Shown here: in pieces, positions 8,663-16,804 of the stretch
Layout: every line of letters starts with the position of its first letter
How positions within the stretch are numbered: the first letter of the stretch is position 1
Source: Acinetobacter phage vB_Aba_01KA
DNA length: 39,611 bases
Reading direction: 5' to 3' (one strand)
Sequence record: PV615262.1
Notes under the pieces: generated by a model
Told to the model about the DNA's origin: nothing
Seen by the model: only the letters and a program-made list of their open reading frames with translations
Databases searched by the model: none
Translations under genes and position numbers: made by a program

Positions 8663-10420
8663 GTAAAGATTTAGTGGCGCGTCAGGCGCTAATGACAGCA
8701 CGTATGAAGTCAGACTTCGTGTTCTTCCTGTTCGTCCTGTGGAAAGCTCTGTCACTACCAGTCCCTACTCGCTGTCAGATTGACATGGCGAAGAAACTAT
8801 CGGCTGGGGACAACAGGCGTTTCATCCTACAGGCGTTCCGTGGTATCGGGAAGTCATTCATTACGTGCGCATTCGTGGTATGGAAACTGTGGAACAACCC
8901 AGACTTGAAGTTCATGATTGTGTCGGCATCAAAGGAACGAGCCGATGCGAACTCCATCTTCATCAAGCGCATCATCGACCTCATGCCTCAGCTTAGGGAA
9001 CTCAAACCTAAGCAGGGACAGCGAGATGCGGTTATCAGCTTCGACGTTGGGCCAGCCAAGCCAGACCACTCACCTTCGGTTAAGTCCGTTGGTATCACTG
9101 GTCAGTTGACTGGTAGTCGTGCTGACCTCCTGATTGCCGATGACGTGGAGGTTCCAAACAACTCAGCTACTCAGGCTGCCCGAGACCGTCTGTCAGAGCT
9201 TGTGAAAGAGTTCGACGCTATCCTGAAGCCGGGAGGTACAATCATCTATCTAGGTACTCCTCAGAACGAGATGACCCTGTACCGTGAGCTGGAAGGCCGT
9301 GGATACACCACTACCATCTGGCCCGCTCGCTACCCACGCGATAAGAAGGACTGGCAGTCTTACGGCGACCGTCTGGCTCCTATGCTTCAGGCAGAGCTGG
9401 AAGAGGACCCTGAGTCCTTCTACTGGCGTCCTACCGATGAAGTACGATTCGATGATACGGACCTGAAGGAACGTGAGCTGTCCTATGGTAAAGCTGGCTT
9501 CGCTCTACAGTTCATGCTTAACCCTAACCTGAGTGATGCCGAGAAGTACCCTCTGAAGCTCCGTGACCTTATCGTAGCAGACTTGGACCCAGCGTCTAGC
9601 CCAATGGTCTACCAATGGCTTCCTAACCCTCAGAACAAGCGTGAGGACGTTCCTAACGTTGGACTCATGGGTGACTCATACCACACGTATCAGACTGTAG
9701 GTTCTGCCTTCAGTTCGTACACCCAGAAGATTCTGGTCATTGACCCTAGTGGTCGTGGTAAGGATGAAACTGGTTATGCGGTACTGTATCAGCTCAACGG
9801 CTACATCTTCGCTATGGAAGTTGGCGGTATGCGAGGTGGCTATGAAGACTCTACGCTGGAAGCCTTAGCTAAGATTGGTCGTAAGTGGAAGGTCAACGAA
9901 TACGTCATTGAGGGTAACTTCGGTGATGGTATGTACCTTGAGCTATTCAAGCCTGTAGCTTCCCGTATTCATCCTGCTGCTGTAACTGAAGTGAAGAGTA
10001 AGGGTCAGAAGGAACTCCGCATCTGTGACGTTCTGGAGCCTATCATGGGGTCTCACCGACTTATCGTCAACGCTGCTGCTATCGTCCAAGATTACCAGTC
10101 GGCCTCTGATAAGGATGGTGTTCGTAACCCTATCTACTCTCTTCTACCAGATGACACGTATCTCTCGTGAACGTGGAGCATTGGCACACGATGACCGACT
10201 TGATGCGCTGGCTATCGGTGTACAGTTCTTCGTTGAGTCGATGGCTAAGGATGCCAACAAAGGCGAACGTGAAGTCACTGAGGAATGGCTGGAGGAACAG
10301 ATGGAGAACCCACGGAAAGGCTTCGAGTCCATCAACACGGAGTTCTGGGACAATGGGGTCCGGGTAACTCACGATACGGACGACGGGCTGGGACTAGGGT
10401 CCTACGTTACGTTCCACTAG
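8659..10420 (+). CDS. terminase large subunit (T7 gp19 homolog), one apparent frameshift near 10140-10170
   Basis: Strong colinear match to T7 gp19 ([75 protein letters not shown]); C-terminal piece 10025-10420 ([14 protein letters not shown]) is in another frame. Confidence 0.9.
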
Positions 10421-10430
10421 CTGAATGAAT

Positions 10431-10477
10431 AACTATAGGTGAAAACTGCATGAATACGCAGTTAGTAACCTATAGTT
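10431..10477 (+). other. nested perfect inverted repeat just after gene 19
   Basis: AACTATAGGT (10431-10440) and ACCTATAGTT (10468-10477) are perfect reverse complements; inner AACTGC/GCAGTT at 10444-10449 and 10458-10463. Confidence 0.5.
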
Positions 10478-10515
10478 ACTACCAGTCTAACCTACTGTTT
10501 TACAAGGAGTTTGGA

Positions 10516-10538
10516 CTTAACTATCACTATAGGGAAGA
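10516..10538 (+). promoter_or_regulatory. phage RNA polymerase promoter (phiOR-equivalent near the right genome end)
   Basis: CTTAACTATCACTATAGGGAAGA, consensus match; located after gene 19 as phiOR is in T7. Confidence 0.75.
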
Positions 10539-10716
10539 CCCCCGGTTACTTATAGTATTACTGTAGTGAATATACATATGCAGACTTTATGCAAGACCTT
10601 AGGAGGCAGACTCCGAGTTCTTACCTAAGGCTTGCACCAATGGAAGGAGGTGATATTAATCATAATCCCTCCAATACAGATAGTCACCGACCATAGATAC
10701 AGGAGGTATGTAGCAT

Positions 10717-10875
10717 ATGGAAAAGACCAAAGCTGTACTTAAAGCTCTGGCGACCAATCGAGCTACATACAGGTTTCTTGCTGCTGTTCTACTTGCTGCT
10801 GGCGTTACTGCTGGAAGTCAGTGGGTCGGGTGGGTCGAGGCTCTCGTATGTTCTCTGGTGTCTCAGTGTAATTAA
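10717..10875 (+). CDS. small hydrophobic protein (52 aa), position-equivalent to T7 gene 19.5
   Basis: ATG 10717 preceded by AGGAGGT; translation MEKTKAVLKALATNRATYRFLAAVLLAAGVTAGSQWVGWVEALVCSLVSQCN; below the 60-aa track cutoff. Confidence 0.4.
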   Translation: MEKTKAVLKALATNRATYRFLAAVLLAAGVTAGSQWVGWVEALVCSLVSQCN

Positions 10876-11315
10876 CGCAATCATGGTAACGATTCATGAG
10901 CGGAAGACCTAAGGTCAGTACGTGGATAAAGACCCACTCTACTGACCTTAGCTACTGTAGTCAAGGACTTTAGGTAACACCTTAATAGAAGCTCACTTAG
11001 GGTCATCCTACTTATTGGTCTATCCTAGTGTCGCCTGACCTACGGTCCTTGACCTACAGTGGCTGTGGCCTACAGTAGTGACGATGAGTTTTGGACCAAA
11101 AGTTTGAGACCACATCTCACAGTTCAAGAACCTCAAGTCTCCCCCATAGGCCCTCTTTAAGTCCAGACCAAAGGCCCTACCCTTGGACCGATGGTCAAGA
11201 CTTCAGGTCAACGATAGGTCTAGGCTATGGCTTAGGGTGGAGACGATAGGTAGAGGCTATAGGTCTTCTTTGAGTCTCTATCTGTATAGTGTTATAGTAT
11301 AACATTACGTCCTAC

Positions 11316-11398
11316 TACCTACAGTCTAACTACCTACAGTCTAACTACCTACAGTCACAACCATAAGACACCAACACCTACAGTCATAGACCTACAGT
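11316..11398 (+). repeat. tandem/dispersed CCTACAGT-containing short repeats in the terminal-repeat-adjacent region
   Basis: 15-bp unit TACCTACAGTCTAAC about three times in tandem (11316-11360), further CCTACAGT copies at 11377-11398 and 11051-11078; analogous in position to the CCTAAAG arrays near the T7 left end. Confidence 0.6.
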
Positions 11399-11451
11399 TA
11401 ATAGACACAAAGCTATAGACTTAAGGTCAAAGACATGTTAGTCAAAGACTA

Positions 11452-11474
11452 TATCCTCTTAGTCACTATGGGGC
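11452..11474 (+). promoter_or_regulatory. degenerate phage-promoter-like sequence (possible phiOL equivalent)
   Basis: TCTTAGTCACTATGGGGCC keeps the TCACTAT core but diverges at flanking positions; followed by an AT-rich stretch and the A1-like promoter, as for T7 phiOL. Confidence 0.3.
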
Positions 11475-11510
11475 CGACGATAGCTTAATCAATATTATTT
11501 AAATAACCTA

Positions 11511-11539
11511 TTGACTATAGGTCCAGACTATGGCTTAAT
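11511..11539 (+). promoter_or_regulatory. candidate host sigma70 promoter (A1-like)
   Basis: -35 TTGACT at 11511-11516 in a context resembling T7 A1 (TTGACT...TATAGG); -10 is weak (CTTAAT, 17-nt spacer). Confidence 0.35.
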
Positions 11540-11651
11540 AGCTTCCGTCAACACGACACGGCAACAACCGGATAGTGAAGACGCCGTGTCATCACGGTTA
11601 AGTAGACAGCCTGATAAGTCATACGAACAACAGGCAGATGACAGAAAGTAG

Positions 11652-11681
11652 TTGACAGGCAGTAACGACTTAAAGTAATAT
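11652..11681 (+). promoter_or_regulatory. host sigma70 early promoter (A2/A3-like)
   Basis: -35 TTGACA at 11652-11657, 18-nt spacer, -10 TAATAT at 11676-11681, followed by GTACCACAT as in T7 A3; upstream GGTTAAGTAGACAGCCTGATAAGTC is near-identical to the T7 early promoter region as I recall it. Confidence 0.55.
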
Positions 11682-11800
11682 GTACCACATCAACACGAAA
11701 CAACGGTGATGACCAACACTGAAATGGTCTACCTGAAGTCCTCTGACTGAAGGGAATGCTCTTTAACAATCTGGATAAACTCTTAATGTGCGCCGATAGC

Positions 11801-11857
11801 GATTAACTACAGGGCCTTTTAGTCTACATCTGAAGGCCCTGACTGATAGTCACTAAC
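11801..11857 (+). promoter_or_regulatory. RNA hairpin upstream of the first early gene (RNase III site, R0.3-like)
   Basis: GATTAACTAC-CAGGGCC-loop-GGCCCTG-ACTGATAGTCACTAAC; 7-bp stem; second copy at 12126-12175 has the same flanks and a covarying stem. Confidence 0.5.
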
Positions 11858-11866
11858 TTAACGCGG

Positions 11867-12121
11867 ATGGACACTATGAAACACTTAAGCACAATCACTA
11901 ATCGCAATGAAGTATTCGTGAACACTAAAGGTTATGCGTGGATTCAGCTTAAAGAGATGACAGGAGCGCGTCACCGTGTGGTAGTGCGCAAGGTATCAAG
12001 CAAGCAGTTCAGCAACTACAGCGTAGATACTGTGCGTATAGACAACGAGACATACCTGATAGACTCGCAGATAACCGTGAGTCCTACAGTGGGCGTCTCA
12101 GCTCCTTATTTCGCTAACTGA
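11867..12121 (+). CDS. hypothetical early protein (84 aa; start may be 11876)
   Basis: First ORF after the host promoters and R0.3-like hairpin; no motif I recognise. Confidence 0.5.
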   Translation: MDTMKHLSTITNRNEVFVNTKGYAWIQLKEMTGARHRVVVRKVSSKQFSNYSVDTVRIDNETYLIDSQITVSPTVGVSAPYFAN

Positions 12122-12125
12122 GAGT

Positions 12126-12175
12126 GATTAACTACAGGTCGTTAGCTTATAGCGGCCTGACTGATAGTCACTAAC
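12126..12175 (+). promoter_or_regulatory. second copy of the early-region RNA hairpin (RNase III-like)
   Basis: GATTAACTACAGGTCG-loop-CGGCCTGACTGATAGTCACTAAC; stem CAGGUCG/CGGCCUG including a G-U pair. Confidence 0.5.
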
Positions 12176-12193
12176 AACTGAGAGGATATAACT

Positions 12194-12691
12194 ATGGAAC
12201 GTAACGCTAACGCATACTATGAGCTGCTGGCTGCAACCGTTGAGGCATTTATCGAGCGTATTCAGTACGACCACCTGACTAAAGATGATGACTACAGCGA
12301 TGCGCTGCATGAGGTCGTAGACAGTCAGGTCCCGCTCTATTACCACGAGATTTTCACGGTGATGGCTGCTGATGGTATAGACCACGAGTTCGAAGACTCT
12401 GGGCTGATGCCTGAAACCAAAGACGTAACGCGTATCCTACAAGCTCGCATCTATGAGGCACTTTATAACGACGTGTCTAATAGCTTGGATGTAGTCTGGT
12501 TTGAGGATGAAGAGGCAGACGAAGAGGATGAATATTGGGTAGTTGACGCTAAAACAGGCGAACTAATTGTGCAATCTGTAGCTCTTGAGGTCGCTACTGC
12601 ATGTGCCGAGGTCAGCTATGCGGCAGGTCGCCACCTGAAGGTGGAAGACATCAATGATAACGTAGTGTTCGACCCTGAGGACTGCGAGTGA
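12194..12691 (+). CDS. ocr: Ocr-like DNA-mimic anti-restriction protein (T7 gp0.3 homolog) with a ~50-aa C-terminal extension
   Basis: [43 protein letters not shown] aligns with T7 Ocr ([43 protein letters not shown]); acidic run [11 protein letters not shown]; 165 aa versus 117 aa in T7. Confidence 0.8.
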
Positions 12692-12852
12692 TGATAACTT
12701 ACGGTCTCTGCCAGCACCACGTCACCATCGCCCGGATTATGGTCAAGACCGGGCGGTTAACCCATGATGAGACTATGCGTCTCCTGAAAGCGGTCTACGA
12801 GGGCCGCAAGTGCATTCACGATAGTCTACACGCTGAGGATAAACCACAATGA
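12691..12852 (+). CDS. small early protein, possible T7 gp0.4 (FtsZ inhibitor) homolog
   Basis: 53 aa; ATG overlaps the ocr stop (ATGA); ...YGL...LKAVYEGRKCI resembles T7 gp0.4 (...YGL...LKELYENNKAI) as I recall it. Confidence 0.4.
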   Translation: MITYGLCQHHVTIARIMVKTGRLTHDETMRLLKAVYEGRKCIHDSLHAEDKPQ

Positions 12853-12998
12853 AACGATACGCTATACAAATTCCGGGATGGTGTTACACAATGACTTGCT
12901 ACGGATACAACGAGAGAGACGCAAGATCCCGATTCCGTGCCCAGCAAGGTTTCGGTAAACGTCTACCAAATGGTACGGCTATCTGGGAGATTGACTAA
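12849..12998 (+). CDS. hypothetical small early protein (49 aa)
   Basis: ATG overlaps the previous stop (ATGA); MKRYAIQIPGWCYTMTCYGYNERDARSRF...; below the track cutoff. Confidence 0.35.
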   Translation: MKRYAIQIPGWCYTMTCYGYNERDARSRFRAQQGFGKRLPNGTAIWEID

Positions 12999-12999
12999 C

Positions 13000-13125
13000 A
13001 TGTACCAGATAACTTATAGCAGTGAACAGGCGTTCTACGATGGGTGCTACGAGATGATGAAGCGCGGTGCTTGCTACGTGGCTAATCACCATAGCCTGAC
13101 CATAACGCTGACAGGCGGGTACTGA
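13000..13125 (+). CDS. hypothetical small early protein (41 aa from ATG 13000)
   Basis: In frame with track ORF 12937-13125, but the start at 13000 follows GGGAGA and avoids overlap with the preceding ORF. Confidence 0.35.
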   Translation: MYQITYSSEQAFYDGCYEMMKRGACYVANHHSLTITLTGGY

Positions 13126-13281
13126 GTGATAGACGAGAGGTCATCGACTGATAGGTGGCCTCAAAGATTACCACTTAAATTGATAGAGGTTAACTATGAG
13201 TGTTGGACATTGGGTATGCTTATCTCCGGTCATCTTTCTGATAGCTTGGGGGATATACGACTGTATTAAACGGAAATCACT

Positions 13282-13479
13282 ATGAGTCTTGCACTATTGA
13301 TAGCCATAGGCTATGGACTTATCGCCTACGTGCTGGTGAGAGACATCAACAAAGCGCGTAAAGTCTACAAATTCAACTATGTATGTCTGGGCCGCTGGAC
13401 TGTACGTCAACCTAATGGACGATTCATGCGCAACTTAGCGAACGTCTGGGATATAGCAACTATTGGTAGCAAACTGTAA
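13282..13479 (+). CDS. hypothetical early protein with N-terminal transmembrane segment (65 aa)
   Basis: MSLALLIAIGYGLIAYVLV hydrophobic N-terminus; 3' end lies in direct-repeat copy 1. Confidence 0.5.
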   Translation: MSLALLIAIGYGLIAYVLVRDINKARKVYKFNYVCLGRWTVRQPNGRFMRNLANVWDIATIGSKL

Positions 13480-13483
13480 TGAA
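13434..13483 (+). repeat. direct repeat copy 1 (~50 bp, about 46/50 identical to 13722-13771)
   Basis: CTTAGCGAACGTCTGGGATATAGCAACTATTGGTAGCAAACTGTAATGAA; covers the last 14 codons and stop of the 13282-13479 ORF and the ATG of the next ORF. Confidence 0.8.
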
Positions 13484-13700
13484 CATAATTAAGGCAGCCG
13501 CGAAGTCTATTAGCGCCATGTTCCCACCACGGCAAGAGGTATGTACAGACCACAAGTTCGTACTATCCTGCGTTGTCGGCGACGAGTTTGACGGTTTTGA
13601 TAAGCTCGTTGTATGTGATTATTGTGGTCAAGAAGCTATACAGCACTCAAACGGTAAATTCGAACTAATTAACGAGGAAGGGGAAGGCGATGGTGAATAA
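13479..13700 (+). CDS. hypothetical small Cys-rich (zinc-ribbon-like) early protein, 73 aa
   Basis: Two Cys pairs (C..HKFVLSC and CDYC) and acidic C-terminus EEGEGDGE; gene is bracketed by the ~50-bp direct repeats. Confidence 0.5.
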   Translation: MNIIKAAAKSISAMFPPRQEVCTDHKFVLSCVVGDEFDGFDKLVVCDYCGQEAIQHSNGKFELINEEGEGDGE

Positions 13701-13721
13701 CAAAAACAACGTATTTGAATA

Positions 13722-13771
13722 CTTGGCGAACGTCTGGGATATAGCAACACTTGGGAGCAAACTGTAATGAA
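13722..13771 (+). repeat. direct repeat copy 2
   Basis: CTTGGCGAACGTCTGGGATATAGCAACACTTGGGAGCAAACTGTAATGAA; here non-coding but still encodes the relic peptide LANVWDIATLGSKL-stop followed by the ATG of ORF 13767. Confidence 0.8.
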
Positions 13772-14027
13772 AACCGTATACATTAACAAACCATCTATCC
13801 GTAGCCGTGTAGAGCAAATACAGCGTGACGAGTTCTTACATCGCCGCATGAAGGCTGAGGGCCATGAGTCCGAACTGATGTGTCTGGCGTATGGTGGACG
13901 ACCGATCACTGACGATGGTAAACTTCTAGTCTCAGGCTGGAAGGCGATGGACCAACGGTCAACCATCAAGCACACGACCAATGGTGACTTCAGCCATCTC
14001 CACGCTAACCAACTGATATGCAAGTGA
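13767..14027 (+). CDS. hypothetical early protein (86 aa)
   Basis: ORF starting at the ATG in repeat copy 2; no recognisable motif. Confidence 0.45.
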   Translation: MKTVYINKPSIRSRVEQIQRDEFLHRRMKAEGHESELMCLAYGGRPITDDGKLLVSGWKAMDQRSTIKHTTNGDFSHLHANQLICK

Positions 14028-14033
14028 TTATGA

Positions 14034-14056
14034 CTTAACTATCACTATAGGACTAA
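14034..14056 (+). promoter_or_regulatory. phage RNA polymerase promoter immediately upstream of the RNA polymerase gene
   Basis: CTTAACTATCACTATAGGACTAA, full consensus; +1 G about 14050, 75 nt upstream of the gene 1 ATG; leader contains a direct repeat AAGTGAAAGAC at 14071-14081 and 14095-14105. Confidence 0.7.
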
Positions 14057-14124
14057 AGGTCTAAGACTACAAGTGAAAGACCAAAGAGACTCTAAGTGAA
14101 AGACTAATAACAAGGACTTTAAGT

Positions 14125-16804
14125 ATGAGCGTCATCTCTATTGACAAACACGACTTCTCTGATGTGTCGAACGCCATTGAGCCGTTTAACCTGCTGGCTG
14201 ACCACTACGGGCAAGACCTTGCAGTCAAACAGCTTCAGCTTGAGCATGAGGCATACACTGAAGGCGAGCGACGTTTCATCAAAAACCTTGAGCGCCAGAC
14301 TGAGCGCGGGGAACTGGCAGACAATCAGGTCGCCAAGCCTTTGATGCAGACTCTGGTTCCTAAGATTGCGCAAGCCGTCAGGGAGTGGCATGAAGGTCCA
14401 GACGGGAAGCTGTCAACCTCTCGTCCTAGCGTAGCGTTCACCATGTTAAGCACCGAAGAGAAGGCCGTCAAGGACCGCTCTCTGCGTATCTCTTGCGAGT
14501 CTGCTGCGGTCATCATACTGAAGGTCATACTCTCCAAGCTGGTAAAGCCTGAAGGGATACCGATTACACCGATGGCCTCCGCGATAGGTCGCACACTTGA
14601 GGACGAAATCCGCTTCGGTCGCATCCGTGACAAGGAGAAGGAGCACTTCAAGAAGGCGATAGCTGAGAACTTGAACAAGCGAGCTGGGGCATCCTACAAG
14701 AAAGCCTACATGCAAGCGGTCGAGACATCCATGCTGGAGCAAGGCCAACTGGAAGATGCGTGGGGACTTGGAGTCCTACAGAGGCTGTCCACGTGGGCAT
14801 CAAGATGCTGGAGATTGTCATCCAGTCAACACAACTGGTCGAGCTTAAGCGGTACGGTGCTGGCAATGCAGCGGCTGACGTAGAGATGGTCCACCTGTCA
14901 GACTTCTGGGTCAAGAAGATGGCACAACGAGGATTCAGCCTTGCGGGTATCGCTCCAGTCTACCAGCCTTGCGTCGTTCCACCTAAGCAGTGGACTGGTG
15001 TCGTAGGTGGTGGGTACTGGGCCAAAGGTCGCAGACCGTTACCATTGATTCGCTTAGGGTCTAAATCAGCGGTGGCACGTTATGAAGACGTATACATGCC
15101 TGAAGTCTATGAAGCTGTGAATATCATCCAGAATACACCTTGGAAAGTGAACAAGAAGGTACTGGACGTGGTGAACATGGTCGAGAAGCTGAACAACACG
15201 CCTATTGATGACATCCCTCAGATGGAGCCACTGAAGCCTGAAGACTATGCGGGTGAGACCGAGGAGGAACTAAAGGCATGGAAGAAGCTGCTGCTGGTAT
15301 CTATCGCCGCGAGAAGGCCAGACAGTCACGCAGATTATCACTGAGCTTTATCGTCAACCAAGCGAATAAGTTCTCTCAGTTCAAGGCCATCTGGTTTCCA
15401 TACAACATGGACTGGCGCGGTCGAGTCTACGCTGTGCCGATGTTCAACCCACAGGGTAACGACATGCAGAAGGGTCTCCTGACTCTGGCAGTCGGTAAGC
15501 CTATTGGTGCTGACGGTTTCAAATGGCTGAAGGTCCATGGAGCAAACTGCGCGGGTGTCGATAAAGTCACCTTTGATGAGCGCATCAAGTGGGTGGAAGA
15601 CAACCACGACAACATTATGGCTGCTGCTAAGGCACCGATGGATAGCATTGAGTGGTGGGGCAAGTTCAGACTCTCCGTTCTGCTTCCTTGCGTTCTGCTT
15701 CGAGTATGCTGGTGTAATGCACCACGGATTGTCTTACTCCTGCTCACTGCCGATAGCGTTCGATGGGTCATGCTCAGGGATTCAGCACTTTAGCGCGATG
15801 CTTCGTGATCACGTCGGTGGACATGCAGTAAACCTAACGCCTTCCGGTAAGGTCCAAGACATCTACCGAATCGTTTCCGACCGCATTGAGGAAGAGCTTA
15901 AAGTCCTGCTGGTTAACGGCACGGACAACGAGATGGTAACTCACGAGGACAAGAAACTGGTGAGATTACCGAACGCCTCAAGCTGGGGACACGAGAGCTG
16001 GCCCGGCAGTGGCTGACTTACGGTATGTCACGCAAGGTCACTAAGCGTTCAGTAATGACTCTGGCCTATGGGTCGAAAGAGTACGGCTTCGCAGACCAAG
16101 TTTATGAGGACATCGTGATGCCAGCGATTGACTCAGGGTCTGGCGCTATGTTCACCGAGCCAAGCCAAGCGTCTCGCTTCATGGCTAAGATGATTTGGGA
16201 AGCTGTGAGCGTGACCGTAGTTGCTGCGGTTGACGCGATGAAGTGGCTTCAGGGTGCTGCCAAGCTGCTGGCTGCTGAAGTGAAGGACAAGAAGACTGGA
16301 GAAATCCTGAAGCCTTGCCTTCCGGTACACTGGGTAACACCTGATGGTTTCCCGGTATGGCAGGAATACCGCAAGAAGGATACCACTCGTCTGAACCTGA
16401 TGTTCTTAGGGTCATTCAACCTTCAGCCTACGGTCAACAAAGGCATGAAGAAAGAGCTGGACAAGCACAAGCAGGAGTCAGGCATTAGCCCGAACTTCGT
16501 CCACTCACAAGATGGTAGCCACCTACGCAAGACTGTAGTACACACGCATCGCAAGTATGGCGTGATGTCATTCGCAGTGATTCACGATAGCTTCGGGACC
16601 ATCCCTGCTGACGCTGAGTATCTGTTCCGTGGCGTCCGTGAGACGATGGTCGAGACCTACCGCGACAACGATGTGCTGCTTGACTTCTACGAGCAGTTCG
16701 AATGCCAGCTTCACGAGAGTCAGCGCGACAAGTTGCCTGAGCTTCCGAAGAAAGGTAAACTGAATATCGAAGACATCTTGTCTTCAGACTTTGCATTCGC
16801 TTAA
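14125..16804 (+). CDS. T7-type single-subunit DNA-directed RNA polymerase (gene 1), interrupted by about four single-base indels
   Basis: Five colinear pieces (14125-14883, 14760-15344, 15278-15793, 15537-16016, 16025-16804) match T7 RNAP throughout (FNLLADHYG, ARFGRIRD, PCVVPPK, AIWFPYNMDWRGRVYAV, DGSCSGIQHFSAM, HDSFGT, ends SDFAFA). Shifts near 14767 (G run), 15287 (A run), 15665 and 15955 (A run). Confidence 0.9.

Follow-up and report, generated by a model that had tools for sequence, protein, structure and literature searches.

The ocr gene and its neighbourhood

The window analysed here is a stretch of 39,611 nucleotides from the sequence record PV615262.1 of Acinetobacter phage vB_Aba_01KA, and its sequence is a 100% match to PV615263.1, the record of Escherichia phage vB_Eco_1RS of the genus Kayfunavirus. 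An ocr open reading frame encoding 165 amino acids occupies positions 12194..12691 on the plus strand, where exactly the protein sequence quoted in the initial annotation was found. A Shine-Dalgarno-like GAGAGGA, read directly from the sequence, lies at 12180..12186 (+), 7 nt 5′ of the ocr ATG. The T7 gp0.3 Ocr protein is a DNA-mimic inhibitor of type I restriction–modification and BREX systems and a trigger of PARIS.

The DNA-mimic core of the encoded protein (aa 1–98; 12194..12487, +) was delimited by Pfam PF08684, by the T7 Ocr structure 1s7z, and by an AF2 model. PF08684 (ocr) matched aa 8–95 with 101.1 bits against a cutoff of 25 (E 5e-29), and the T7 Ocr chain 1s7z_A matched at E 8.3e-24, pairing aa 11–113 of the window protein with T7 residues 11–116; the claim that the first ~115 residues align with T7 Ocr was thus borne out. 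Approximately 50 residues lie beyond this alignment and are absent from T7 Ocr. AF2 predicted core helices at 7–26, 35–59, and 75–95. An alignment of 119 long forms (Ocr proteins that carry the additional residues) shows no variation at F54, L82, or Q83; F54 and L82 belong to the Ocr dimer interface, which is also the surface contacted by PARIS AriA (PMC10802264). Residues 1–103 include 22 D/E and 6 K/R (net charge −16), and the net charge of the whole 165-aa protein is −33. As expected for ocr, the gene is located in the early region and precedes both a gp0.4-family gene and the gene for the phage RNA polymerase. On the grounds of sequence, structural homology, interface residues, charge, and gene position, the predicted product is a member of the Ocr family.

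The core is followed by a conserved DVVWF segment (aa 99–103; 12488..12502, +), the final element common to long and short Ocrs ahead of the tail. Among the 119 long forms, W102 is invariant and V100, V101, and F103 are at least 96% conserved, and the short Ocrs of Kayfunavirus, Przondovirus, and Vectrevirus likewise have a DVVWF-type segment. The next ten residues form a polyacidic linker (aa 104–113; 12503..12532, +; net charge −9), identified by its column entropy, its indels, and its low pLDDT. It is the most variable part of the family, with the highest column entropy, many indels, and lengths between approximately 3 residues (CLB_P1) and more than 20 (protein P0098). An accessory module of 48 aa (aa 114–161; 12533..12676, +), defined by its AF2 fold, conservation, and dN/dS, separates the linker from the EDCE acidic tail and TGA stop (12677..12691, +), which the short Ocrs have in common with the long ones. 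According to a codon-level comparison of junctions, the module is bracketed by a GAGGA direct repeat, the left copy of which is at 12524..12528 (+) and the right copy at 12677–12681. The acidic tail residues E107, E111, and E116 of T7 Ocr contact BrxX (PMC11317158); therefore, this end of Ocr is a region of target contact.

A homolog of the T7 gp0.4 family at 12691..12852 (+) begins with an ATG that overlaps the ocr stop codon (TGATG), and its product is 84% identical to that of a relative (L060) labelled PF26807 Phage_T7_GP04. Every relative examined, whether its Ocr is long or short, has the same overlap, a hint that ocr and the gp0.4-family gene are translationally coupled. Further downstream, the T7-type RNA polymerase gene (14125–16804, +), which encodes approximately 893 aa in two relatives (L004 and L059), is divided here into at least five overlapping open reading frames, and PV615263.1 labels the region as several “N4-like RNA polymerase” pieces. 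Such a broken gene suggests that the record contains errors of the frameshift type, from sequencing or assembly. The indel problems noted for this sequence are thus genuine, and the ocr reading frame itself is intact and collinear with those of its relatives.

Upstream of ocr, from ~9200 to 12100 (positions 1–2930 of L001), the gene for the terminase large subunit directly adjoins the early region and is followed by ~1.5 kb containing only tiny annotated open reading frames. Relative to the canonical T7 map, the record is therefore circularly permuted, and the terminal repeat and early promoters are expected in this stretch. A search of positions 10500–14500 for RNA elements gave no Rfam match at E ≤ 1. 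The Enterobacter phage IME278 (L002) combines an annotated SAM hydrolase with a short Ocr and a kinase of the gp0.7 type (139–591, 953–1288, and 1665–2375). K1F and the window phage have a long Ocr, and neither a SAM hydrolase nor a gp0.7-type kinase is annotated in the stretches examined. A paper on JSS1_004 has no bearing on ocr, since that protein is a homolog of the gp0.7 kinase.

A module inside the acidic tail

Matches spanning the full-length 165-aa form from end to end came from 71 phage records, among them K1F gp0.3, LM33_P1, CLB_P1, Citrobacter phage SH3, Hafnia phage yong1, and Providencia phage EPr2. When the last 55 residues were used as the sole query, the same 71 records were retrieved, and the match was always the 3′ part of ocr. 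In a public protein collection clustered at 90% identity, 118 of the 120 best clusters were long forms of 162–179 aa. The K1F-type module was present in 71 of the 152 phage records with megablast-level similarity to the core DNA.

Comparison with IME278, a Kayfunavirus whose short Ocr ends with DVVWF-DPEEEDCE and the stop codon, located the difference precisely. DNA alignment revealed an in-frame block of 168 nt that is present in the window and K1F and missing from IME278; on either side of it, and through the stop codon to the overlapping start of the next gene, the three agree. Many further short Ocrs, from Kayfunavirus and Przondovirus, have EEDCE or EDCDD as their last residues. Because the block is flanked by this common tail and stop, what had been described as a C-terminal extension of ~50 aa is an internal module within the acidic tail: the extra residues were confirmed, and their terminal placement was not.

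The initial annotation had offered two explanations for the additional residues, a fused extra domain and an indel that removed the native stop. The second, favored by the frameshift-type breaks in the RNA polymerase gene of this assembly, can be dismissed with near certainty, since full-length matches occur in 70 other independently sequenced phage genomes and in more than 100 metagenomic clusters, the stop codon is identical to that of the short forms, and the length difference is an in-frame 168-nt block. The first was upheld by the conservation in 71 phage genomes and 118 protein clusters, by purifying selection, and by a confidently predicted autonomous fold.

Within the K1F-type subgroup, the window protein is unremarkable. 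K1F gp0.3 and the Kayfunavirus proteins annotated as “ocr-like anti-restriction” (PHROG 2568) have the same architecture and are 79–96% identical to it; the window protein shows no difference of substance, although its tail reads DPEDCE instead of DPAAAEEDCE. At 12674–12688, it lacks the “AAAE” of most relatives, which end with DPAA(A)(E)EDCE, and this shortening is a further small in-frame deletion among repeat-rich GCN/GAR codons. C164 (12683–12685) is a lone cysteine in the acidic tail and is kept in 91% of long forms. A tail cysteine, within EDCE or EDCDD, is also found in most short Ocrs of Kayfunavirus and Przondovirus (L007, L014–L018, and L019–L043) and has no equivalent in T7 Ocr. The resemblance to T7 gp0.3 takes in the clearly homologous N-terminal ~100 residues, F54 and L82, the acidic surface, the acidic C-terminal region, and the early gene position upstream of the gp0.4-family and RNA polymerase genes. 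In contrast, T7 Ocr is a protein of 117 aa with a bare acidic tail, whereas in the window protein the predicted helix 3 ends at ~95 and is followed by DVVWF, the acidic linker, the 48-aa module, and EDCE with its conserved cysteine.

Within the module, Y114, W115, V116, D118, T121, G122, I125, L131, A134, Y142, G145, H147, and V150–P161 are 90–100% conserved among the 119 long forms, and these residues would be the ones expected to form a hydrophobic core or turns. Positions 123–124, 126–127, 130, 132–133, 135, 140–141, 143–144, and 146 are variable in the same alignment. The exposed face of the module helix falls into discrete sequence types, namely EVATACAKDHYAIGRHL, YEAIACAKELYEEGFHM, and NDAI.CAKDLYAVGHHM. 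By the Nei–Gojobori method, 17 long-form genes gave a dN/dS ratio of 0.36 over the module, against 0.21 over the core. These codon substitution patterns indicate that the module is under purifying selection, somewhat looser than that on the core.

AF2 modeling on the family alignment placed module strands at 114–118, 124–129, 148–152, and 157–159 and a helix at 131–143. The module had a pLDDT of 84–90 within the full-length model, in which the pLDDT of linker residues 107–109 was below 50 and the pTM was 0.51. The low-confidence linker together with this pTM suggests two units without a fixed mutual orientation. When modeled alone from a 40-sequence alignment, the module reached a mean pLDDT of 90.5 and a pTM of 0.71. 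It is therefore predicted, with high confidence, to be a compact autonomous domain of β-β-α-β-β topology. Its net charge is −5, and the family median is −4.

Loss and age of the module

The direct repeats that flank the module consist of acidic codons. In L057 both flanks carry GAGGAGGAC, K1F and CLB_P1 have GCTGAAGAG at either end, and the window has GAGGA. When such repeats are recombined, the outcome is exactly the short ends that were observed, DEEDCE-stop (L015, L017, L007, and L018) and EAEEDCE-stop (L014 and L016), and the short tail of L018 is that of the window protein minus the module. IME278 has a third junction, at TTCGA. The short Ocrs of IME278, phiYIO1-1, Przondovirus, and Vectrevirus resemble the long form in the core, the DVVWF-type segment, the EDCE/DCDD ending, and the downstream gene but are without the module, and the junctions in Kayfunavirus fit recombination between the flanking repeats of the long form.

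The module has also been disrupted by other routes. In one derivative (P0120/L004), a TAT→TAG nonsense codon at Y114 is followed by a deletion into a downstream gene, and in another (P0123/L059), a +1 G frameshift in a TATTGGG run separates ocr from the module. In P0091, a deletion has left two-thirds of the module, counted from its start, fused to the C-terminal end of the gp0.4-family protein, so that the second Pfam domain of P0091 is the product of that fusion and was rejected as an extra domain. Likewise, the 186-aa form of IMEP24 is not a new domain variant; a deletion has joined the first half of its module to another downstream gene. In P0126, found in Kc166A-type phages from three independent samples (L062–L064; gene 2501–2674), nearly all of ocr is deleted, and its first 10 residues are joined to the back half of the module. 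PARIS is known to select escapers that have lost Ocr, and the deletion in P0126 recalls these (PMC10802264).

In a neighbor-joining tree built from 309 nt of core codons and lacking support values, the short forms of Kayfunavirus are interspersed with long ones, a pattern that recombination could mimic, and the Przondovirus and Vectrevirus clades are uniformly short. The several deletion junctions and the nonsense, frameshift, and fusion forms indicate that loss of the module is recurrent; nevertheless, most close relatives keep it. The initial annotation had anticipated that relatives with a standard-length Ocr and a separate downstream open reading frame would speak against a fused domain. 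Standard-length Ocrs do exist, as does one Ocr accompanied by a separate open reading frame, but they derive from the long form, as their repeat-mediated deletions, TAT→TAG nonsense codon, and +1 G frameshift demonstrate, and hence they do not refute it.

The IME15/Ebrios/Aeromonas phage group and Kosakonia phage Kc166A have other Ocr cores, which carry versions of the module with only ~25% identity, and these versions keep the pattern W-V..G..I...L/F-E.AI...Y..G...VED....V.F/Y.P. The occurrence of these divergent modules on other cores indicates that the fusion predates the K1F-like group. Evolution is much faster in the module than in the core, which is 82% identical between the window protein and IME15.

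Relatives and possible role of the module

Searches for relatives of the module gave no Pfam or PHROG match and no convincing structural relative. An exhaustive HMM search of 1.84 billion representatives for stand-alone or otherwise fused copies returned only two weak matches, P0122 and P0121, and a profile search of 5.8 billion clusters found nothing but degraded ocr derivatives. P0122 was rejected for low complexity. P0121 was not accepted as a solid match, as its E-value of 1e-5 is reached only by adding up a short “VEDIN..V.YDP” motif across repeats, each worth 4–12 bits. P0121 is a protein of 2313 aa with a prepilin-like N-terminus and repeats near 1189–1220, 1548–1565, 1788–1825, and 2154–2172. 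By eye, its repeat unit (W-R-I-L-S-I-D-E-T-T-G-E-I-L-L...ICKELYSSG...VEDINKAVGYDP) looks like the whole module, and these repeats could be either a distant relative or a chance resemblance. The likeness to YegP/DUF1508, suggested by a YWVVD..TGE..I motif, was set aside, since neither a profile nor a fold match was obtained. Capture of a downstream gene such as gp0.4 was also rejected, because the gp0.4-family gene is intact downstream of both long and short forms. The T4 Dmd antitoxin, AcrIF9, AcrIIC3, ClpS, and the C-terminal domain of L7/L12 showed no sequence similarity to the module and received no Foldseek support. The resemblance of the module to small α/β inhibitors and to the ClpS core is one of common small fold only, and we do not claim membership in these families.

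We favor, with a probability of roughly 0.55, the reading that the module acts as an accessory, protein-binding head and tunes the interactions of Ocr with host defense proteins. This reading draws on the acidic autonomous domain predicted at the end of a variable and flexible tether, on the combination of a conserved module core with a variable face, and on the retention of the module despite the repeats by which it can be excised, with some losses. Given the Ocr hallmarks, including the invariant F54 and L82 and the strongly negative surface, the core should act as a dimeric DNA mimic that would plug the clefts in which type I restriction enzymes and BREX PglX/BrxX bind DNA. Helix 3, with Q83 at the dimer interface, would lead away from that interface, and the two modules of a dimer would hang at its distal tips on acidic tethers; this location is deduced from helix geometry. 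There, the module might bind a second target, hold a target more firmly at the place where T7 has just its bare acidic tail, or make Ocr harder to recognize for abortive-infection systems that sense it, such as PARIS. The contact surface would be the variable exposed face of the module helix together with the second strand. Other observations count against such a head. The repeated natural loss shows that the module is dispensable in at least some hosts, and its dN/dS above that of the core could reflect relaxed constraint rather than an arms race.

The alternative that survives best, and which we consider distinctly less probable, is that the module is a structural cap without a target of its own, which would stabilize, solubilize, or protect the acidic C-terminal end, for example against proteolysis, or would add bulk and negative charge that lengthen the DNA mimic. 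The acidity of the module and its position after a polyacidic linker are in keeping with a cap, as are its dispensability in many lineages and its lack of a known partner. In contrast, the Ocrs of T7, Przondovirus, and Vectrevirus manage without it, and the variable length and low model confidence of the linker argue for a tethered independent unit that is not packed on the core. Moreover, discrete sequence types on an exposed helix face are more typical of an interaction surface.

A more specific possibility, which we consider rather unlikely, is that the K1F-type Ocr is bifunctional, its tethered module supplying a second anti-defense activity or a shield against PARIS-type sensing. If so, the recurrent loss and the discrete surface variants would be the record of an ongoing arms race.

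It is still less probable that the module is a decaying relic, an old fusion without meaningful selection whose deletion has merely not yet happened. Frequent loss by many routes, a dN/dS higher in the module than in the core, and a module identity of ~25% between clades whose cores are ~80% identical would all suit decay. However, the ratio of 0.36 is well below 1, and the open reading frame is intact in 118 clusters although the flanking repeats ease excision. The nearly invariant hydrophobic, Gly, and Pro positions, the confident AF2 fold, and the persistence of the fold-defining pattern in clades that are ~25% identical also oppose it. That the module mimics a ClpS-like adaptor, engaging host ClpA/ClpAP so as to protect Ocr or redirect proteolysis, appears very improbable. 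The ClpS family profile gave no match, and the sole other Pfam signal was a sub-threshold HTH_64 at E 0.046.

Ocr is the textbook DNA mimic and is now central to research on BREX inhibition and on PARIS, which senses it. To our knowledge, nearly all work on Ocr, BREX, and PARIS is based on the 117-aa T7 protein. No description or test of the extra domain of the long form was found in the literature searched, a search that did not extend to the original K1F genome paper. The domain itself appears to be undescribed, while the K1F-type protein entered the databases with the deposition of the K1F genome. In the records, long-form ocr is variously annotated, with labels that include “ocr-like”, “protein kinase”, and “N4-like RNA polymerase”.

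This study also bears on the diversity of Ocr among phages. K1F, LM33_P1, and CLB_P1 reportedly target host capsules or O-antigens, according to the BASEL and genome papers. The genus of these phages carries an Ocr architecture that differs from that of T7, with an uncharacterized, selectable extra domain. If the domain is merely a stabilizing cap, its recognition would be a useful correction of annotation, given the “protein kinase” and “N4-like RNA polymerase” labels. If it alters which defenses are blocked or triggered, it would bear on the prediction of host range and would add a new small anti-defense domain.
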